Assembly (NCBI GenBank): GCA_041906765.1
Contig: JAYRIP010000009.1
Coordinates: 1 to 48,443 of the forward strand
Direction: 5' to 3'
Length of the DNA: 48,443 nt
Source of the DNA: Candidatus Saccharimonadales bacterium
Lineage (GTDB): Bacteria > Patescibacteriota > Saccharimonadia > Saccharimonadales > JAYRRP01
In this document: one piece after another, positions 1-46,022 of the stretch
Numbering within the stretch: the stretch's first letter is position 1
Layout: each line of letters begins with the position of its first letter
Made by a program: the position numbers and the translations under genes
The notes under the pieces: generated by a model
The model's database searches: none
Seen by the model: only the letters and a program-made list of their open reading frames with translations
Told to the model about the DNA's origin: nothing

Positions 1-16
1 CAAACAGGGGTGGCTA

Positions 17-25
17 TGCTACAGT
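17..25 (+). promoter_or_regulatory. extended -10 box TGcTACAGT upstream of tRNA-Arg
   Basis: TGn+TACAGT ends 9 nt before the tRNA 5' end. A near-identical box TGcTACAAT sits at 43972-43980. Confidence 0.4.
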
Positions 26-144: not shown

Positions 145-196
145 GTGTTTGTTACTGGTCTGATACAAATCGATGACCCATCAGAGAGGGGCGGTG

Positions 197-269
197 TGAG
201 ACATGCCAGTGGCATGTCGCAAGGTAATCTACTCTTGCAAACTGGTTTGCAAAGATGTAGTTACGGGCC
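197..269 (+). ncRNA. copy A of a conserved two-hairpin element (candidate structured RNA or recombination-site arm)
   Basis: 59/73 nt identical to 44024-44096. Hairpin 1 is 200-218 (8 bp, 3-nt loop). Hairpin 2 is 229-260 (13 bp, 2 bulges, 4-nt loop). Four double substitutions preserve pairing. Confidence 0.5.
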
Positions 270-280
270 TGCAGAATGTA

Positions 281-306
281 GGTCGAATATCCGTCCGCGG
301 GTACTA
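281..306 (+). repeat. degenerate duplicate of the tRNA-Arg 3' end (T loop plus acceptor strand)
   Basis: GGTCGAATATCCGTCCGCGGGTACTA compared with GGTTCGAATCCGTCCGCGGGTACCA at 87-111. The 14-nt core CCGTCCGCGGGTAC is identical. Confidence 0.75.
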
Positions 307-657: not shown

Positions 658-3600
658 ATGAGACAAAAAAGTATCAGTGTGGTAAAGCGTTACGGGGGTA
701 AACTCGCCAAAAATAGCGCTCACCATGCCCGCAAGAGCATACACGTGGCAACAAAGAGTGCCCGCATTGGGGCTAGTCAAGCCAAAAGAGTAGCCACGGT
801 TAGCGCCGTGCATGCCGCAAAAAGCTATAAATTTGCGCACCACCATCTAGTACAACGCCCTCACCAAAAGCTTGTACAGCATGTCGGGTGGTACCGTAGA
901 TGGCATGAGTGGCAGTGGCACCGCTTTACTCATTACGCAGCTTTATCTTTGTATACCTTAGTAATTGGCGTGATGCTGTTTAATACTTTCCGTGTGGCGC
1001 TTGCCGCAGATTTAAATGACACCTGGAACTTCTCAACACCAGGGGATTTCACTTTCGACAGCGGACTCGAAACAAGTGGGTCTGCAGCTAGGCTGAAAGC
1101 ACAGAATTATACAGCTGATTCGAATACCAAGGCGCTTTATCACCTTGATGACGGATCGGGCTCCAATTTGTCTGATTCTTCCGGGAGCGCCAATCCGGCA
1201 ACAGCGAGCGGATCACCTTCTTGGGTGACAGGGAACTTACAAGGCGGTCTGCAGTTAAATGGATCTACTCAATATGCTCAAGCAGCTGATTCAAGCTCTT
1301 TGTCATTGTCGCAGCAAAATAGTATAGAAGGCTGGACAAAATTTGGTAGCAGTTTTGGCAATAATACGCACAGCCAAGATCAGACAGTGGTGGACAAGGG
1401 TAGCTACAAACTGTACTACGATCGCACTACCGGCAAAGTTACGTACGAGCTGACGAACTCAGCGGCTACGAGCTGGACCCAACAAGCTGGAAACGACATC
1501 AAAGGCAGTTGGGACACCAACGGTAAATCTAATGTACTAACGCAAGTGGCGATTGGCAGTAATATATATGCTGGACTTGGTATAGGCACTGGCGACGCGG
1601 AAGTCTGGAAATGGAATGGGACAAGCTGGAGCCAGATCGGCGGCGATGGTAAGAATTCGAGTTGGGCTGATCAAACTTTTGAATCAGTTGCCTCGTTGGC
1701 GGCAAATGGCAATACGTTGTATGCCGGACTCGGCACAGGCGCCGGTGACGCGGAAGTCTGGAGTTGTGATACGAGCAGCGGCTGCAGCAGCTGGACCAAA
1801 ATTGGCGGTGACGGTTTGGATCCGGGCGCTCCGGGAAATGCATCGTGGGCTTCTGCGACTTATGAATCAGTTGAGAGCATGACCTACATGGGGAGCTACC
1901 TTTATGTCGGACTGGGAAATAGCGCCCAGGACGGCGAGGTCTGGCGGTTTAATCCGAGCAACTCAGATTGGACCAAGATCGGCGGCGATGGAGTTAATCC
2001 GGGTGGAGGTGCCTCTTGGACTACACTGGCGAATGTTGAAGAAGTCTACTCACTTGTCAACGATGGTACGTATTTATATGCTGGACTAGGTAATAGCACG
2101 AACGATGCGGCAGTCTGGCGGTTTAATCCTTCCACTAATGCCTGGTCCCAATTAGGTGGCCAATCATGCTGTGGCAGCTGGGGCGCAGTCCATGAGGATG
2201 CGCTTTCAATGACTACAATGAGCGGTAGCCTTTATGTTGGACTCGGCACAGGCACCGCCGATGCGGAAGTCTGGAAATATAACGGCAGCACCTGGACCAA
2301 AATCGGCGGCGATGGTACCGGGTGGGCAGATCTCACCTATGAAGGAGTATATTCACTCACGAACGATGGTACGAATGTATATGCAGGACTAGGGTATTCA
2401 ACCGGTGATAATGAAGTCTGGAAATATAACGGCAGCACCTGGACCAAAATCGGCGGCGACACAATAAACGGTGGTTTTAATGGCAGTGGCACTAACTACA
2501 TAACCAGTCTGCTTTATACTGGGGGGAATTTATATAGTGGGCATTCAGTTAACGGAACAAATGCCACCGGCGAAGTCTGGAAATATAACGGCACTAGTTG
2601 GTCACGCCTTGGCGGTAACTTCTTAAATTTAAGCTGGGGAGTATTAAATTATTCCAGTATTGATGCCATGACCGCCAGCGGCAACTATTTGTATGCCGGT
2701 ACAGGCGGCGCATATGCAGATATTGGGCAAGTCTGGCGGTTTGACGGCTCGACCTGGGAACTGATTGGCGGCATGGGGCTCAATAGCAGTTGGCCGGCCT
2801 ATACCTACGAAGGTGTCTATAGCTTGATTAATTATAAGGGTGATTTGTACGCTGGACTTGGTGTTAGTACTAATGATGCCGAAGTCTGGAAGTGGAACGG
2901 TACCACCTGGACGCAAGTGGGAGGGGATGGTCTTAATAGCGGCTGGAGCGGTATCCAAAGGGTGAGCGCGATGACTATCTATAACAATGAAATGTATGTT
3001 GGACTATATGGAACTGCAAATAATGGCCAGGTGTATAAATGGAACGGCACTTTGTGGACGTACGTAGGCGGTAATACCGTCGGTGGTGGTTACAATGCCT
3101 GGCCGGCCGGCTATGAGGCAATTACCAGTCTTTCGGTGGTGAATAACAAGATATATGCGGGGATGGCCAGCAGCACTGGGGATGCTGATGTCTGGCAACT
3201 GTCGGGTACCACCTGGACGCAAGTGGGAGGGGATGGTCTTAATAGCGGCTGGGTGGCGGCAACCTATGAAGATGTTGACAGTATGGTGGCTTATAACGGT
3301 AATTTGTATGCCGGAATTGGTACTAGTGCCGGCGATGCGGAAGTCTGGAAATATAACGGCAGCACCTGGACCAAAATCGGCGGCGATGACAGCGGCGGTG
3401 CTACTACTTGGTCTGACGGTCAATACGAGCAGGTGCGGAGCCTGGCAGTTTATAACGGAGAGCTTTATGCAGGATTGGGTAACTCTACGGGTGATGGCGA
3501 AGTCTGGAAATATAACGGCAGCACCTGGACCAAATCTGCCGGCGGTGGCGTTAACTCTAGCTGGGCTGCTGCCACAGTTTCCTATATTCCGTCTATGTCC

Positions 3601-6600
3601 GACTATAAAGGCAAGCTATATGTAGCTGCCGGCGGAATGGTGGGTTCAAACAATAACCCTCAAATTTGGTCTTTAGGTAGTAACGGCTTTTTGCAGAGTG
3701 CGGCCACTACGCAAGACACCAGTTGGCACCATATCGCAGCAACTTATGATGGTGCGACCATGAAACTATACATTGACGGCACGCTAAACAATTCAACCAG
3801 TGTATCGTTATCGATTCCGGACAATAGCTACCCACTGCTTATCGGCACAAATTATGGTGGTTCGGGGGCAGGTGAACAGCAGGGGTTTTTGGCGGGCTCA
3901 ATAGATGAAATAAGGATCTCAGACACTGCTCGAAGCAGTTTTACCACATTGCCCTACTCCAATTCGGTACAGAAAGTCACGTTGGCGAGTGCGGTGAGAT
4001 TGAGCGGAGTACGTGACTGGGAAGGGTTTAGCGCCAGTGAAACTGCGAACGGTGGCAACATAAAGTACCGGCTAAGTATTGATGGAGGTACTACCTGGAA
4101 GTACTGGACTGGCTCTTCGTGGGGAACATCTAGCTCTACGAGCGAAGCTAATACAGTCAGTACCGTAAACAGTAATATTAGCACGCTACCCGTTACGTTT
4201 GGCGGCATAATGTGGCAGGCAGTGCTATCGGGAGACGGAACACAGCAAGTTACCTTGAATTCAGTCACAGTAACGTCAAATTCTGACAATGTAGAGCCGA
4301 GTGCTAATGCGAGCGCAATCCAGGCGTACAAGTCGAACGGAGGTGCTTCGTTAACATCAAACGGATGGACTAACGGCAGCTCCCCTTACTTTACTTGGAC
4401 AGCTGGTAGCGATGCCGGCTCCGGTATAAAGGGGTATTGTTTATATCTGGGGACTGATAATACTGCTGATCCGGTTACTACCAAAGGTATGCTTGGCACC
4501 AGTCCGGTCACCACGGGTGGGCACTGCCAGTTCTTAATTGCGAGCAGCAACATTGATTTGGCTACTGCGGGATACTTGAGTACAGCTCTGACGACCAGTT
4601 CCAGCCCCTACTATCTCCGTATAAAAGCAATCGATAATGCAGGGAATGTTTACAGTGCCTCCACGGCCCAATTCCAGTTCCGCTTTGATAATACGCCGCC
4701 TTCGAACCCAGGCTACATTACGGCCCCCTCTGGGTTTATCAATACCAAAACGGCGAATCTTACTTGGTCAACTGTTGGCGGTCAGGCTCCGGCAGATAGC
4801 AACTCAGGAGTAGCGGGTCTTCAATACCGCGTAAACAATACTACCTGGTATGGCGACGGGCACACTGGTTCGGGTGACATTAATGATCTGTTAACAAATG
4901 ATGGCGATTACACCACTGCTGATCCGCCGGACTTTGATAATATCAACGAAGGGATCAACACAGTTTATTTCCGCACCTGGGATCAGGCCGGCAACGTAAC
5001 GTCAAGCTATGTTTCGGCAGCGCTTAAGGTCAATACCAACGGCTCTCCGACTGAGCCGCAAAATGTGGCTGCAACTCCTTCGACTAACACGACTAATTCA
5101 TTCTCATTTGATTGGGATGAACCGGCAACATATGTTGGAAGCGCAGGTAATCTAACCTATTGTTACACGATTAACACACTGCCCTCGGCCAATACCTGCA
5201 CCTTTACCTCCGCAGGTGTGACAAGTTTAGGTAGTGGACCCTACGCAACGCAGCCTGGCTCAAACACCTTCTACGTGGTAGCGCGGGATGAGTCCAGCAA
5301 TATAAATTACGCCAATTACGCTTCCACTACTTTTACTGCTAACACTTCTGCGCCTGGCATACCAACCAACACCGATATAGTGGATGTATCTATTAAATCG
5401 ACAAACAGCTGGCGGTTGGCACTTACCTGGGAACAACCGGCCAATACAGGATCGGGCATTACCAGCTACAAAGTATATCGTTCGACCAATAATGTTAGCT
5501 TTAGTTTCGTCGGATCGAGCTCTAGCACGACCTATATTGATGCGAATCTATCTCAACAAACTTATTACTACCGTGTAAGGGCATGTGACAACACTAACAA
5601 TTGTGGCGCAGAGAACGGTACAGTGCATATGCTGCCGACTGGTAAATTTACCACTCCTGCCGACATGACTTCAGAACCTACCGTTAGCAACATTACTACA
5701 AAGCGGGCACGGATCAACTGGTCGACTGACCGAGGGTCCGACAGTAAGATATCTATTGGTACCTCAAGCGGTCAGTACAGTCCTTCGGAAGTGGGCAATT
5801 CTAGCCAGGTTACTTCTCATGTAATCGACCTAGATAATCTGGCGGCAGGTACCACCTATTACTTCAGAGCTAAATGGACAGATGAAGATGGTAATACGGC
5901 GACAAGCGAAGAATATAGCTTCACTACATCGCCTGCCCCCCAACTGAAAGAAGTGGTGACGCTCAAGACAACATTAGCTGGTGCGATCATACAGTTTTCA
6001 ACTAAAGACGCTACCAAAGCAAATCTGTACTTTGGTAAATCTGATGCGTTCGGAGGTTTGAAATCAATTAATACGAGCGCCTCCGAGTCAACCTACAGCA
6101 TTGAACTCACCGGTCTTGATGATGGCACTAAATACTACTACAAGATAAGTACATTTGATGACGAAAATGGTGAATACCAAGGAACTATCTTCTCATTCAC
6201 TACTCCATCCAGGCCTCGGATCAGTAATCTAAAGTTCCAGCCGGTACAGGGGGAGCCCACTAGCACACAGAAAGTAACATGGGATACCAACGTGCCGACC
6301 ACTACTACCATTACTTATGGCAAACTGAATACTTCAGGTACAGATGTCCAGCAGTCACAACTTGTCACCGCACACGAAATAGTTATCCGTCAGCTCGAAG
6401 ATAACAGCCAATACTTCCTTATTGCCTCTGGCAGAGATGCTGATGGTAACTTATCTGCGTCGGACAGACAGCAATTCCACACGGCACTCGATACCAGATC
6501 GCCAAAAGTGACTGAGGTGGTAACCGAGCCTTCGATTAAAGGCTCCGGTGCAGAAGCTAGAGGACAGATCGTCGTATCGTGGAAAACTGATGAACCATCC

Positions 6601-6861
6601 ACCAGCCAGGTGGCTTATGCGGAAGGAAGTTCCAGTACGTCATTCAACAGCAAAACCGCTGAAGATACGCAACTTACCACTGAGCACCTGGTGATTGTTT
6701 CTGACCTGCCGACAAGCCGGGTCTTTAGCATTCAGCCTGTTTCGAAAGACAAAGCTGGTAATGCAGGCACGGGAGAACCGCAATCTGCCATCATAGGGCG
6801 AGCTTCAGATAGTGTGCTTACTATCATATTAAATACGCTAAGACGGGTATTTGGGATCTAG
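658..6861 (+). CDS. giant membrane-anchored surface protein: LamG-like domain, 14 beta-propeller blades, second LamG-like domain, multiple Fn3-like domains
   Basis: 2067-aa ORF with a basic N-terminus and one TM helix (YAALSLYTLVIGVMLF). About 50-aa repeats (LYAGLG..GDAEVWKYNGSTWTKIGGDG) occur 14 times. LamG signature WHHIAATYDG..KLYIDG...IDEIRISD. C-terminal Fn3-like repeats (..WxT....S.V.YG......Y.F). Confidence 0.9.
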   Translation: MRQKSISVVKRYGGKLAKNSAHHARKSIHVATKSARIGASQAKRVATVSAVHAAKSYKFAHHHLVQRPHQKLVQHVGWYRRWHEWQWHRFTHYAALSLYTLVIGVMLFNTFRVALAADLNDTWNFSTPGDFTFDSGLETSGSAARLKAQNYTADSNTKALYHLDDGSGSNLSDSSGSANPATASGSPSWVTGNLQGGLQLNGSTQYAQAADSSSLSLSQQNSIEGWTKFGSSFGNNTHSQDQTVVDKGSYKLYYDRTTGKVTYELTNSAATSWTQQAGNDIKGSWDTNGKSNVLTQVAIGSNIYAGLGIGTGDAEVWKWNGTSWSQIGGDGKNSSWADQTFESVASLAANGNTLYAGLGTGAGDAEVWSCDTSSGCSSWTKIGGDGLDPGAPGNASWASATYESVESMTYMGSYLYVGLGNSAQDGEVWRFNPSNSDWTKIGGDGVNPGGGASWTTLANVEEVYSLVNDGTYLYAGLGNSTNDAAVWRFNPSTNAWSQLGGQSCCGSWGAVHEDALSMTTMSGSLYVGLGTGTADAEVWKYNGSTWTKIGGDGTGWADLTYEGVYSLTNDGTNVYAGLGYSTGDNEVWKYNGSTWTKIGGDTINGGFNGSGTNYITSLLYTGGNLYSGHSVNGTNATGEVWKYNGTSWSRLGGNFLNLSWGVLNYSSIDAMTASGNYLYAGTGGAYADIGQVWRFDGSTWELIGGMGLNSSWPAYTYEGVYSLINYKGDLYAGLGVSTNDAEVWKWNGTTWTQVGGDGLNSGWSGIQRVSAMTIYNNEMYVGLYGTANNGQVYKWNGTLWTYVGGNTVGGGYNAWPAGYEAITSLSVVNNKIYAGMASSTGDADVWQLSGTTWTQVGGDGLNSGWVAATYEDVDSMVAYNGNLYAGIGTSAGDAEVWKYNGSTWTKIGGDDSGGATTWSDGQYEQVRSLAVYNGELYAGLGNSTGDGEVWKYNGSTWTKSAGGGVNSSWAAATVSYIPSMSDYKGKLYVAAGGMVGSNNNPQIWSLGSNGFLQSAATTQDTSWHHIAATYDGATMKLYIDGTLNNSTSVSLSIPDNSYPLLIGTNYGGSGAGEQQGFLAGSIDEIRISDTARSSFTTLPYSNSVQKVTLASAVRLSGVRDWEGFSASETANGGNIKYRLSIDGGTTWKYWTGSSWGTSSSTSEANTVSTVNSNISTLPVTFGGIMWQAVLSGDGTQQVTLNSVTVTSNSDNVEPSANASAIQAYKSNGGASLTSNGWTNGSSPYFTWTAGSDAGSGIKGYCLYLGTDNTADPVTTKGMLGTSPVTTGGHCQFLIASSNIDLATAGYLSTALTTSSSPYYLRIKAIDNAGNVYSASTAQFQFRFDNTPPSNPGYITAPSGFINTKTANLTWSTVGGQAPADSNSGVAGLQYRVNNTTWYGDGHTGSGDINDLLTNDGDYTTADPPDFDNINEGINTVYFRTWDQAGNVTSSYVSAALKVNTNGSPTEPQNVAATPSTNTTNSFSFDWDEPATYVGSAGNLTYCYTINTLPSANTCTFTSAGVTSLGSGPYATQPGSNTFYVVARDESSNINYANYASTTFTANTSAPGIPTNTDIVDVSIKSTNSWRLALTWEQPANTGSGITSYKVYRSTNNVSFSFVGSSSSTTYIDANLSQQTYYYRVRACDNTNNCGAENGTVHMLPTGKFTTPADMTSEPTVSNITTKRARINWSTDRGSDSKISIGTSSGQYSPSEVGNSSQVTSHVIDLDNLAAGTTYYFRAKWTDEDGNTATSEEYSFTTSPAPQLKEVVTLKTTLAGAIIQFSTKDATKANLYFGKSDAFGGLKSINTSASESTYSIELTGLDDGTKYYYKISTFDDENGEYQGTIFSFTTPSRPRISNLKFQPVQGEPTSTQKVTWDTNVPTTTTITYGKLNTSGTDVQQSQLVTAHEIVIRQLEDNSQYFLIASGRDADGNLSASDRQQFHTALDTRSPKVTEVVTEPSIKGSGAEARGQIVVSWKTDEPSTSQVAYAEGSSSTSFNSKTAEDTQLTTEHLVIVSDLPTSRVFSIQPVSKDKAGNAGTGEPQSAIIGRASDSVLTIILNTLRRVFGI
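2266..2312. repeat. identical intragenic block GAAGTCTGGAAATATAACGGCAGCACCTGGACCAAAATCGGCGGCGA
   Basis: Exact copies at 2266-2312, 2413-2459 and 3340-3386. A 36-nt core copy lies at 3499-3534. Copies 1 and 3 also share extra flanking bases. Confidence 0.9.
2899..2946. repeat. second identical intragenic block (48 nt)
   Basis: GGTACCACCTGGACGCAAGTGGGAGGGGATGGTCTTAATAGCGGCTGG occurs at 2899-2946 and 3205-3252. Confidence 0.9.
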
Positions 6862-23052: not shown

Positions 23053-23129
23053 TGGAGGGCCCACTGGGACTCGAACCCAGGACACTCTGCTTAAGAGGCA
23101 GATGCTCTAACCAACTGAGCTATGGGCCC
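23053..23129 (-). tRNA. tRNA-Lys (anticodon CTT), CCA encoded
   Basis: The reverse complement reads GGGCCCA-TA-GCTC..GAGC-A-TCTGC-CTCTTAA-GCAGA-GTGTC-CTGGG-TTCGAGT-CCCAG-TGGGCCC-T-CCA. Confidence 0.93.
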
Positions 23130-43828: not shown

Positions 43829-43929
43829 ATACGGAAACATCCAAAAAGCAGATCTGGCGTAATCGGTCAGAATATGCTACGATTAACTTGATAGCATGAG
43901 CATAGACTGACCGCTCACCAGACTCTTAA

Positions 43930-43961
43930 AAGAAATCCCTTGTATGAGGGATTTCTTTTTT
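43930..43961 (+). terminator. rho-independent terminator
   Basis: AAGAAATCCCT-TGTATG-AGGGATTTCTT followed by TTTT. Confidence 0.8.
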
Positions 43962-43971
43962 ACCCCTGTTA

Positions 43972-43980
43972 TGCTACAAT
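43972..43980 (+). promoter_or_regulatory. extended -10 box TGcTACAAT upstream of the tRNA-Glu locus
   Basis: Lies 26 nt upstream of the 17-nt tRNA-Glu 5' fragment. Same box type as upstream of tRNA-Arg. Confidence 0.45.
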
Positions 43981-44006
43981 TTGCCAGTCTTGTAAAAGCC
44001 AAACGG

Positions 44007-44023
44007 GGCCTCATCGTCTAACG
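44007..44023 (+). repeat. 17-nt duplicate of the tRNA-Glu 5' end
   Basis: GGCCTCATCGTCTAACG is identical to 44182-44198. Confidence 0.85.
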
Positions 44024-44096
44024 TGAGAATTGCCGGTGGCAATTCGCAAGGGAATCTTCTCTTGAAAACTTGTTTTCAAAGATGAAGTTCCGGGGT
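44024..44096 (+). ncRNA. copy B of the conserved two-hairpin element
   Basis: Homologous to 197-269. Hairpins at 44027-44045 and 44056-44087. Confidence 0.5.
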
Positions 44097-44181
44097 CGCC
44101 AGAGGTGACTAGGACATCTTAACCGTTAAGGCTAAATGATTGGCACAAGTACCTTAAAATCATAGATAAGTATCCAGATAT

Positions 44182-44256
44182 GGCCTCATCGTCTAACGGT
44201 TAGGACACCAGGTTTTCATCCTGGCAATAGGGGTTCGATTCCCCTTGAGGTCACCA
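44182..44256 (+). tRNA. tRNA-Glu (anticodon TTC), CCA encoded
   Basis: GGCCTCA..CGTCTAACGGTTAGGAC-A-CCAGG-TTTTCAT-CCTGG-CAAT-AGGGG-TTCGATT-CCCCT-TGAGGTC-A-CCA. Confidence 0.92.
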
Positions 44257-45925
44257 TAGGAAAATTATCGCCAAGCAAGGCTTGGAAGACTGGATTCACC
44301 CCTGTAATATGGGGTGATTTTTGGTTTCGGAAAGCTAAATCATTGTAGGTTGGTAATTTCTTGAATATGACCCCGAAAAGTTGAGCTTTTTTGGTATCGT
44401 TACTCTGTTGATTGATAACCTGTCCGATGTTTTCGGAAAACTTCTTGACTCTGGTTATAACCTTGTCTATATCCATAGGTTTTTTAGTTTCCATGTTCAT
44501 CCTTTCTAGTGCTAGGCGCTTAATCTGTTGATCGATATTCTCTAGCTCTTCATTGACATACTTCTGAGCTGAGGAAGCAATAGTGGTAAAACTTTTGGTG
44601 AGCTCTCTGGCTTGAGCTTCAAGCCGAGTAATCTGTGAATCAGTGGCCGCCGTCTTAGCTTCATAAAGGGCTAGATGTTGCTCATACTTTTCGCGTACAA
44701 CCGCAAAGACCTCATCCACTCGTTCTTTAGAAAAGACTAAGTCATTAATGAAATCATAGACCTTAGTCTCAAGATCTTCTTTCGTGACTCTGAATTTGTG
44801 ACCTCGTTTATCACAGTGGTAGTACGAGTAGTATTTGCCGGTTTTGCCTCGTGAAGTGCTACCTGACAGGGGTTTATTACACTCAGGGCACATAACATAG
44901 TGCTTGAACGCAAAGTCATTGTTGCGCGTGCCTCGTACGGTGGCATTGCGTGGAGCGATGCTATCATGGATGGCTATTTTGTTTCCGGGCATTTCAATAA
45001 TGACTCGTTTGCCTTTATTGGCGCGGTTGAATAGCTCGACTGACACCAGACCATCGAACATACATTTCACTGGCTGGTATTTTGTCCACTTTTCGACATT
45101 TACACCTACATAGATTGGATTGCGTACCATTTTCCAGAGCTTTTTATGGTCAAGTAGACTACCTTCAGTTTTGCCAACCACACGATTTCGGTTTTCTTTA
45201 GAACGTCGGTACTGTGGCCGACCATGATAACCCAAGTCATTGAGCTTGGTGGCAATTTCTTTATCTGAGAATTGTTCACTGGCTCTGAGCTCAAATAGTT
45301 TAACGATAAACTTTGCTTCTTCAGGATGCGGCTTCAATATAGTGCGTTTGCCGTGCTGAGTCTCGACTTTTTCTCCCGTAAAGCCGTAAGGTGGTTTACG
45401 CATCCAGTAGCCCATCTGGGTATAGCGAATTTCAGCACCAATAACTCGGCTTAGTATGTCTCGTACTTCATCCTTAGATCTTTCAGCTTCTAACATCTCG
45501 GACTTACGACTAGGTGAGTAGGTGCTCCACTTGTAGCTATGACCGAGATGCTCTAGAGTATTAACTTTCTCCTGACTAATAACGCCGTAGGTATCAATGA
45601 GGGTCACGCCGTGGCTATCGAGCTGGGTTTTTAGCGCATCGTAAGACATTGAGCCTCCGCGGGTAAAACGATCGATTGACTTAACGATGAATAAGTCAAT
45701 ATCGTTTTTCTTATCCTTGCAGTAATCAACCGCTCCTTGCATAGGCTGTTGTTCTTTGCTGGCCGATTCCATAAAGACAAAGAACTTTTTAATTACAATA
45801 CCTTTGTTTTGGGCAAAGCGTTCGATTTGCTCCTTCTGAGCCTCGGGTGAGTCGCCATCACGACCTTGCTTAGAAGTTGAGACCCGAATAGCAGCGATAG
45901 CGTTTCGGTTACGAGCTGGTATCAT
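44216..45925 (-). CDS. large serine recombinase (integrase)
   Basis: Catalytic AAIRVSTSKQ and DRFTR, recombinase domain, zinc ribbon CPECNKPL...YYHCDKRGH, and a coiled coil. RBS GAGGAG lies upstream of the ATG at 45925. The last 41 nt run antisense to tRNA-Glu. Confidence 0.92.
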   Translation of the reverse strand: MIPARNRNAIAAIRVSTSKQGRDGDSPEAQKEQIERFAQNKGIVIKKFFVFMESASKEQQPMQGAVDYCKDKKNDIDLFIVKSIDRFTRGGSMSYDALKTQLDSHGVTLIDTYGVISQEKVNTLEHLGHSYKWSTYSPSRKSEMLEAERSKDEVRDILSRVIGAEIRYTQMGYWMRKPPYGFTGEKVETQHGKRTILKPHPEEAKFIVKLFELRASEQFSDKEIATKLNDLGYHGRPQYRRSKENRNRVVGKTEGSLLDHKKLWKMVRNPIYVGVNVEKWTKYQPVKCMFDGLVSVELFNRANKGKRVIIEMPGNKIAIHDSIAPRNATVRGTRNNDFAFKHYVMCPECNKPLSGSTSRGKTGKYYSYYHCDKRGHKFRVTKEDLETKVYDFINDLVFSKERVDEVFAVVREKYEQHLALYEAKTAATDSQITRLEAQARELTKSFTTIASSAQKYVNEELENIDQQIKRLALERMNMETKKPMDIDKVITRVKKFSENIGQVINQQSNDTKKAQLFGVIFKKLPTYNDLAFRNQKSPHITGVNPVFQALLGDNFPMVTSRGIEPLLPG

Positions 45926-46022
45926 CCTGATTCTCCTCAAGTACAAGTTCAAGTAAAATATCCGCTAGTAGATCGATCTGCTCGTCTCTTTCTACTTCAC
46001 TAGTCGATATTTCATTAGCCAT
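45909..46022 (-). CDS. 37-aa acidic small ORF overlapping the recombinase start (candidate directionality or regulatory factor)
   Basis: MANEISTSEVERDEQIDLLADILLELVLEENQDDTSS. RBS GAGGG lies 5 nt upstream. 17-nt overlap with the recombinase gene. Too short for the ORF track. Confidence 0.3.
   Translation of the reverse strand: MANEISTSEVERDEQIDLLADILLELVLEENQDDTSS

Follow-up and report, generated by a model that had tools for sequence, protein, structure and literature searches.

A 17-nt repeat of the tRNA-Glu 5' end in a Saccharimonadales contig, read as the orphan left by a family of structured, tRNA-sparing inserts

The locus described here has partial counterparts among several known systems. 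It lies in a 48,443-nt contig of a Candidatus Saccharimonadales bacterium (JAYRIP010000009.1, positions 1 to 48,443, hereafter the window), in which the first 17 nt of the tRNA-Glu gene are repeated upstream of the intact gene, with an 87-nt structured core, termed E, starting on the last base of the upstream copy. We conclude that the upstream copy is an orphaned tRNA-Glu 5' end, and that it was created by one of a family of structured, tRNA-sparing inserts. Like these E modules, integrative elements at tRNA genes and their gene-less derivatives (attL–attR remnants of the CIME type) leave a partial tRNA copy beside a rebuilt intact gene, with a repeat that runs to the tRNA end, stack in tandem at one tRNA, and supply a terminator or promoter of their own. 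E modules differ in having no integrase in or near the unit, in measuring only ~150–190 bp, and in placing one and the same conserved core at nt 25/26 or in a D, anticodon, variable, or T loop, with two target bases replaced. Moreover, the core sits between the stem and the loop of a tRNA arm, splitting what would otherwise be the contiguous core site of an integrase.

Integron attC sites and the attP(+) hairpin of the CTX phage are recombination sites formed by folded single strands. They share with E a structure kept by compensatory change, strand specificity, and short cassettes with a single gene or none that stack at one site. Whereas attC is a single imperfect hairpin that has R and L boxes, E forms a three-hairpin junction, and its target is a tRNA loop; a dependence on IntI or Xer would be conjectural for E. 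Miniature elements derived from IS200/IS605 and repetitive extragenic palindromic (REP) elements, which undergo single-strand transposition by HUH enzymes, likewise measure ~100 nt, lack an open reading frame (ORF), have hairpins near both ends and a fixed orientation, and produce no classical target duplication. In contrast to the IS200/IS605 miniatures, E has dissimilar terminal hairpins, a target that consists only of a G in a structured context, a loss of two bases at most junctions, and, always, an accompanying partial duplication of the target gene. No gene for TnpA, RAYT, or another HUH transposase was found among the ORFs within 3 kb of 120 E loci.

Small insertions at D-loop and T-loop positions are also known from Thermoproteales archaea, as tRNA introns at non-canonical positions, and short copies of tRNA ends beside the gene from E. 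coli tRNA operons, as tRNA-linked repeats (tyrT/rtT). E differs from the introns in occupying non-functional partial copies, never the only functional gene, and no bulge-helix-bulge motif was identified in it; to our knowledge, bacteria are without the splicing endonuclease. The tyrT/rtT repeats, in turn, have no such structured core.

The tRNA-Glu locus and the E family

The exact 17-mer GGCCTCATCGTCTAACG occurs twice in the whole window, with no such repeat in 100 shuffles even when two mismatches were allowed. Its second copy forms nt 1–17 of the intact tRNA-Glu(UUC) gene (ARAGORN; Rfam tRNA, 63.5 bits; coordinates in Table 1). The initial annotation, made from the letters of the window alone, had recognized this direct repeat and had placed the original tRNA promoter about 26 nt before the first copy, where the box TATGCTACAAT is indeed found. 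The same motif precedes tRNA-Arg in the window (15–25) and lies 15–36 nt before tRNA-Glu +1 in the plain loci L006, L012, L018, and L023. The spacing between promoter and orphan is therefore that of a normal tRNA start, and the first copy occupies the start position of the tRNA gene. Past the core, the tRNA-Glu sequence picks up again with TAGGACA (nt 20–26), nt 18–19 (GT) being absent between core and short arm; the core thus lies inside a partial tRNA copy, and not merely behind a 17-nt repeat. That the 158 nt between the two copies begin with a structured element was also anticipated in the initial annotation, except that its hairpins number three rather than two.

Comparison with the tRNA-Arg locus (gene at 35–111), which the same annotation had proposed, revealed a homologous core at 196–282, likewise inside a partial tRNA copy. 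The two cores differ by five compensatory pair changes, and both fold as three hairpins on a junction. At tRNA-Arg the core is preceded by GGCGGT, the 5' strand of the T stem, and followed by TCGAAT-AT-CCGTCCGCGGGTAC, and the exact repeat ATCCGTCCGCGGGTAC at 289–304 corresponds to nt 60–75 of the tRNA; a terminator at 121–137 separates the gene from its module. The core thus occupies the D loop at one locus and the T loop at the other. The tRNA-Lys(CUU) gene (23053–23129, minus strand), with promoter box and terminator and no module, provides a plain comparison locus in the same genome.

How well is the fold of E conserved? In an alignment of 53 distinct cores, in which the search pattern itself fixes the first 29 columns, standard pairs fill 95.5% of pair cells, changes on both sides are seen in 22 of 33 pairs, and none of 500 shuffles performed as well as the observed pairing, with no slid register coming near. 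G–T or T–G pairs number 77, far above the 17 A–C or C–A pairs, which identifies the tRNA-sense strand as the folding strand; one G–U pair of hairpin 3 is retained in 48 of the 53 sequences. The fold is thus conserved and strand-specific, as for attC-like folded sites. Single-stranded motifs are invariant in the three-hairpin junction, namely GTGAGA, TCGCAAGG, and CGGG. Cores start with GTGAGA, end in ..GGTGAC, ..GTAGG, or similar, and have no terminal inverted repeats, hairpins 1 and 3 being unrelated in sequence. In 870 kb not selected for E, covariance model R1 found five copies (two in the window, one in L033, two in L022), all beside tRNAs.

The family was searched for in metagenome and viral contigs with the first 29 nt of the core. 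Matches occur in at least 120 metagenome contigs, and there are at least 132 core copies in all, the window and L033 included. A tRNA lies within 420 nt of 98 of these copies, and all 98 share its strand (0 opposite) and lie inside a partial copy of it; the tRNAs beside the listed copies represent fifteen amino-acid specificities. Two arrangements are seen. In 51 of the 98, called "down" modules and exemplified by the tRNA-Glu locus, a long exact arm starting at nt 1 is followed by the core, a short arm, a spacer, and the intact tRNA. The remaining 47 are "up" modules, as at tRNA-Arg, with the tRNA followed by ~77 nt that usually contain a terminator, an imperfect short arm of ~10 nt, the core, and a long exact arm reaching to the CCA.

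The modules obey positional rules. Among the matches listed, insertion points fall in the D loop (nt 17), at nt 24–26, in the anticodon loop (37–38), in the variable loop (46), and in the T loop. The first G of the core, often GT, falls on a target G, and at 43 of 57 sharp junctions among the matches listed the tRNA resumes 3 nt after this shared G, i.e., two bases are replaced. The repeated tRNA part, which reaches from where the core is inserted to the terminus of the tRNA, measures 15–52 nt in "down" and 16–28 nt in "up" modules and ends no more than 2 nt past the mature tRNA end in 25 of 30 and 19 of 28 of them, respectively, again among the matches listed. Since its length varies with the distance from insertion point to tRNA end, it is not a target-site duplication of fixed size. 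The short arm is ~8–13 nt long in all modules compared. Beyond the end of the repeat the sequence differs, with terminators or promoter-like motifs of its own; about a third of the spacers hold their own promoter-like box, and promoter-like motifs precede the orphans in 13 of 34 "down" modules versus 3 of 34 shuffled controls.

Two E subtypes share nt 17 of tRNA-Glu as an insertion point (the window, L100, L126, L104, and L022) and give one and the same architecture there, and near-identical cores (95–98% over 58 variable nt) are found in different tRNAs, positions, and module types. Recurrence elsewhere with different flanking duplications, which the initial annotation had named as the mark of a small mobile element, is seen at other tRNAs for the 87-nt core and not for the 175-nt unit as a whole; in public runs, copies from other loci have limits that match the core's ends at 44023 and 44109. 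A scan of 189 tRNAs showed no plain, uninterrupted partial copy among fragments of at least 12 nt, the fragments examined adjoining E or another small structured element, and the same holds for each clear fragment at the 53 tRNAs not selected for E.

Some loci hold more complex arrangements. Stacks of modules at one tRNA include two identical 175-nt units in tandem (L158), two tandem units with different terminators (L150), and those at L115 with L159 and at L128. In L131 (2703–3198), a near-full pseudo-tRNA-Leu (nt 1–74) with two cores is followed by the intact gene and then by an "up" module. E is found in the loop of a non-tRNA hairpin in L065, L074, L093, L075, and L161 (AAAAAGNGCCTCYRGAGG, then E, then GGGCACC), and L075 and L074 have an uninterrupted copy of that hairpin (..AGAGGGGGTGGGCACC..) a short distance downstream. 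An antisense copy of the long arm is visible in the spacer of some modules, including L100 and L126; as a general feature, such a fold-back copy was rejected, with a median z of ~0 against shuffled spacers and z > 3 in 3 of 75 modules.

E apparently represents a large, undescribed Saccharibacteria family. At gathering scores, Rfam 15 matches only the three tRNAs in the whole window, and at E-values up to 10 it gives no match covering 44023–44109 within 43900–44300. Viral contigs and the phage and plasmid records gave no match to the core, and a full-text literature search gave no description of the family. Clustering of the 604 ORFs that lie up to 3 kb from 120 loci brought out no recurrent enzyme gene; the clusters comprised housekeeping genes only, plus one serine recombinase cluster present in 4 loci.

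How is the intact tRNA-Glu gene expressed behind such an insert? The spacer holds no terminator and no strong promoter, and a sigma-70 two-hexamer scan gave no match; the promoters concerned belong to the extended -10 type. As transcription from the promoter at 43970–43980 would meet no terminator before the tRNA, and the spacer offers no convincing promoter, the gene is likely transcribed through orphan, E, and spacer and released by RNase P.

Table 1. Features of the tRNA-Glu locus and of the module at tRNA-Arg
Feature	Position	Strand	Remarks
Host tRNA promoter box TATGCTACAAT	43970–43980	+	26 nt before orphan 5' end; from sequence
Orphan tRNA-Glu nt 1–17 (long arm)	44007–44023	+	Exact repeat; G44023 shared with first base of core
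87-nt three-hairpin core E	44023–44109	+	Covariance model, 103 bits; homologous to 196–282
E hairpins	H1 44027–44045, H2 44051–44094, H3 44098–44109	+	
Short arm TAGGACATC	44110–44118	+	tRNA-Glu nt 20–28, 8/9 identical
Spacer, interrupted copy to intact gene	44119–44181	+	Start TCTTAACCGTTA.. kept in L100 and L126 module
Intact tRNA-Glu(UUC)	44182–44256	+	nt 1–17 are second repeat copy (44182–44198)
Large serine recombinase, 578 aa, separate island	44216–45952	-	Pfam Resolvase, Recombinase, Zn_ribbon_recom
Terminator-like hairpin and T run, tRNA strand	44296–44317	+	Inside recombinase 3' region
Module behind tRNA-Arg	182–304	+	Short arm 182–195, core 196–282, long arm 283–304

Two further features of the window adjoin these loci. 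Just before the tRNA-Glu promoter, a small unit (43873–43961) combines the promoter-like TATGCTACGAT (43873–43883) and a conserved GACTGACCGCTC (43906–43917) with a terminator hairpin and T run (43932–43961). It may be a small RNA gene, has no Rfam match, and its arrangement of GACTGACCGCTC and terminator recurs before tRNA-Glu in L003, L015, L023, L031, L038, and L046. Directly after the tRNA-Arg module, an ORF of 2067 aa (658–6861) contains long runs of a ~45-residue repeat (..YAGLG.S.GDAEVWKYNGS.WT.IGGD..), and its product looks like a large surface protein.

Origin of the insert

We propose the following, tentatively and as a leading candidate that falls a little short of probable: a gene-less insertion cassette of ~175 bp, which preserves the tRNA gene, left the 17-nt repeat as its scar. 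In the cassette, the 87-nt core would be followed by a ~9-nt remnant of tRNA-Glu nt 20–28, by ~63 nt of spacer, and by a cassette-borne copy of tRNA-Glu nt 1–17; the whole would have entered the D loop of the gene in one step, right after the G of ..TAACG. In this event, the host's original nt 1–17 would be stranded as an orphan beside the original promoter, and the cassette's nt 1–17 would join host nt 18–75 to rebuild an intact gene. E would act folded on the tRNA-sense strand, as RNA or single-stranded DNA, and presumably be handled by a factor encoded elsewhere. Insertion of the whole unit is suggested by the identical architecture that the two core subtypes reach each time at nt 17 of tRNA-Glu, by orphans standing behind host-type promoters, by "up" spacers with their own terminators, which differ between stacked modules, and by the absence of uninterrupted partial copies from the 189 tRNAs scanned. 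L100 looks like an L015-type locus to which a Glu-17 module has been added.

Several observations weigh against this proposal. A circle or tandem copy would read ..CCAGATAT-GGCCTCATCGTCTAACG-TGAGAA.., and the search for a circular junction or a restored empty site that the initial annotation had called for came out negative: neither was present in the contigs of eight public DNA runs, in which, these being assembler contigs, absence is weak evidence; mobility of the copy at tRNA-Glu is therefore putative. The filled form is present in contigs of several sludge, compost, and wastewater runs, none of which skips the 175 nt (for example, a 2179-nt contig over 43000–44244 with two differences, and a variant strain over 44056–44700); further run contigs represent tRNA-Glu loci of other organisms. 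The near-identity of cores in different surroundings indicates that E may move by itself, without spacer and tRNA part. In L059, L118, L120, L022, and L052 the repeat extends 15–40 nt past the tRNA end, which looks like local duplication of host DNA. In L102, pairing with the 3' acceptor strand is poorer for the orphan than for the intact copy, opposite to the simplest prediction, in a test with few informative cases; decay of the orphan would also explain this result. No enzyme was identified among the ORFs within 3 kb of the 120 loci, and a double-stranded circle of 175 bp is physically awkward.

A possible, if on balance unlikely, alternative is that only the 87-nt core is mobile and that it inserted into a spare 5' fragment of tRNA-Glu that already existed, such as an attachment-site remnant of an earlier integrative element. 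Insertions into functional tRNAs would be lethal and hence never seen, and unoccupied fragments would be rare and soon lost by excision or deletion between repeats. The 95–98% identity of cores across different tRNAs, loop positions, and module types fits this scenario, as do the ends at 44023 and 44109, which are sharp and shared by copies whose flanks are unrelated, and the position of E between the stem and loop of a tRNA arm, where it interrupts rather than constitutes a classical integrase core site. It would also accommodate the occupied loops of non-tRNA hairpins (..CAGAGG-E-GGGCACC in L065, L074, L075, and L161, with the uninterrupted hairpin adjoining in L075) and the single long pseudo-copy with two cores in L131. 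Yet no such uninterrupted fragment was seen, either among the 189 tRNAs or among the unselected 53, where clear fragments adjoin E or another structured element; two E subtypes arrive at an identical architecture at nt 17 of tRNA-Glu; and a short arm that is always ~8–13 nt long ties the boundary of the duplication to E. The cores, moreover, may resemble one another because they are close to the consensus and not because they moved recently. We therefore favor insertion of the whole cassette over insertion of the core into spare fragments, but only moderately so.

Could the module instead be a functional RNA? E might be displayed on a tRNA-derived scaffold and cut from the leader or trailer of the tRNA, as a stable small RNA, a processing element, or a regulatory element, with new copies arising by local duplication. 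We consider this decidedly improbable. Strong covariation and the G–U pair kept on the sense strand in 48 of 53 cores point in its direction, and E at tRNA-Glu, placed between promoter and tRNA with no terminator, must be transcribed; the partial tRNA copies could provide ends of the RNase P or CCA type. "Up" modules, however, lie behind intrinsic terminators such as that at 121–137, so that many copies should be poorly transcribed. The context is varied, with four kinds of tRNA position, either half of the tRNA, and non-tRNA hairpins, and offers no common flanking RNA architecture. Presence also differs among related loci (L015 and L046 versus L100 and L126; L001, L003, and L012 versus the window). 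E copies from other loci do appear in contigs of RNA-labelled runs with ends at 44023 and 44109, but these are assembled contigs with a depth of 3–14 and possible DNA carry-over.

An origin at the RNA level is less probable still, to the point of being remote. Here E would enter loops of tRNA molecules in a manner resembling reverse splicing, and the chimeric RNA would be copied back into DNA beside the gene. Repeats ending 0–2 nt past the mature terminus (25 of 30 "down", 19 of 28 "up" modules), insertion after a G at exposed positions of the folded tRNA, and a folded strand that is the RNA-sense strand all fit this origin. Against this, repeats reach into promoter or terminator DNA in L022, L052, L059, L118, and L120, spacers with their own terminators or promoter motifs belong to no tRNA, no reverse transcriptase is found among the recurrent neighbors within 3 kb of the 120 loci, and 87 nt is far below the size of any self-inserting ribozyme known to us.

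One of two explanations offered in the initial annotation was a small, gene-less insert that is read through to express the tRNA. An insert of this kind accords with a core found at many tRNAs with different repeats; the 17-bp target duplication attached to it does not, as repeats of 15–52 nt run to the tRNA terminus. A transposon or miniature inverted-repeat transposable element with target-site duplication was rejected, given repeats of no fixed length (15–52 and 16–28 nt) and the lack of terminal inverted repeats. We also rejected a tRNA intron, whether group I or protein-spliced: what E interrupts is a partial copy, an intact, uninterrupted tRNA of that type adjoins it in every case where the contig extends far enough, and no Rfam intron matches.

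The adjacent serine recombinase island

The initial annotation had further recognized a serine recombinase beside tRNA-Glu, correctly except for its coordinates, given as 44216–45925 (the ORF runs from 45952 to 44216 on the minus strand). Its other explanation for the repeat was an element of this recombinase that had crossed over in the D arm and brought a complete replacement tRNA-Glu. By translation, the last 13 codons of the recombinase (..PMVTSRGIEPLLPG) are antisense to nt 37–75 of tRNA-Glu. Among 55 homologous loci, which include the unintegrated forms L004, L008, L009, and L007, the gene ends antisense within a tRNA in 36 (28 tRNA-Glu; the others Arg, Gln, Asp, Leu, or Lys). The four free forms have no tRNA at the gene end, and their protein runs ~30 residues beyond ..FPLVTS; free and integrated forms part right after the codons for ..VTS. 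The free forms have only ~10 nt in common with tRNA-Glu, GAGGTCACCA or a near match, and the crossover of the recombinase therefore maps to nt ~66–75 of the tRNA, i.e., its 3' end.

The recombinase family therefore carries its attachment site inside its own last codons. Integration exchanges ~30 native C-terminal residues (..PGMERNTLSLQELDEKLEELGLVEVNGK..) for 13 tRNA-antisense residues (..RGIEPLLPG). With large serine recombinase islands of the phiC31, Bxb1, and SCCmec-Ccr type the neighboring island shares the Resolvase, Recombinase, and zinc-ribbon domains and site-specific integration at a short common core; it is unlike them in the location of the attachment site and in this exchange of C termini. 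The terminator-region sequence GGATTCACCCCTGTAAA..GGGGTG is present in free and integrated forms alike, and the island-borne hairpin at 44296–44317 probably terminates tRNA-Glu transcription. This probable terminator of the tRNA lies on the strand opposite the recombinase 3' coding region.

The island is independent of the 17-nt repeat system and is joined where the tRNA has its 3' end. That the repeat represents attL and attR of the island, formed by recombination in the D arm, is scarcely tenable: in its favor, the recombinase gene abuts and overlaps tRNA-Glu and homology between the window and L001 (recombinase 93% identical) starts exactly at tRNA +1, but the crossover lies at nt ~66–75 and not at nt 17, an orphan 5' end occurs at only one of 28 recombinase/tRNA-Glu junctions (L022), no displaced 58-nt remainder of tRNA-Glu is found within 10 kb in relatives, E modules stand at many tRNAs without a nearby recombinase, tRNA-Arg in the window among them, the homology start at +1 is accounted for by conservation of the tRNA, and L003, syntenic upstream, has a different insert type at the same place.

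Other inserts at tRNA genes and implications

E is not the only structured element at these tRNAs. A second, unrelated insert type upstream of tRNA-Glu (L030, L031, L052, L024, and L003) consists of an orphan tRNA-Glu nt 1–8 (GGNCNCAT), ACTTTGTATG, a hairpin, a ..ATGTAAAC.. hairpin, and the intact tRNA; its repeat takes in 18 nt of leader (cttttcgctcacctgcgaGGTCCCAT) in L052. A third type (..GGCTTGGT..GCAAGTAGTGCCNAGCAAACTTGTTTTGTNGGCA..CACACGNTGACG) lies directly before tRNA-Glu in L015 and L100 and resembles part of E (GCAAG, AAACTTGTTTT), and L100 has the E module stacked within this third type. Further families of small structured elements stand before 3' tRNA fragments, with ends reading ..GGAGCGNAGCGATAT or ..TATACCTTAGTAT (L104, L105, L126, L082, L162, L122, L148, and others), and others follow 5' tRNA fragments terminating at nt 19. 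Modules flank several tRNAs on both sides.

What does this mean for the bacteria concerned? Saccharibacteria have genomes of ~1 Mb in which tRNA genes are mostly single-copy. Many of them nonetheless carry modules, and module formation must therefore spare the gene by design. E, an 87-nt core under strong structural selection, is either a structured RNA family not described before or the part of a likewise undescribed insertion mechanism that acts in cis, and in both cases would be new biology of the candidate phyla radiation. At one hotspot, two layers can now be told apart, a serine-recombinase island at the 3' end of tRNA-Glu and a mini-insert in its D loop, and orphan tRNA fragments that confuse tRNA annotation and the calling of island boundaries find an explanation. 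The covariance model and the positional rules enable a census of the family.

We speculate, while regarding it as rather unlikely, that E is the recognizable core of mobile elements of a new class, which act on folded single strands, whether RNA or single-stranded DNA. Such an element would be aimed at an exposed G in a tRNA loop or hairpin, would have no enzyme gene of its own, and would insert by a mechanism that also makes a partial copy of its target, such that the essential single-copy tRNA survives and the arms define the target; if so, the module would be a naturally addressable insertion device.

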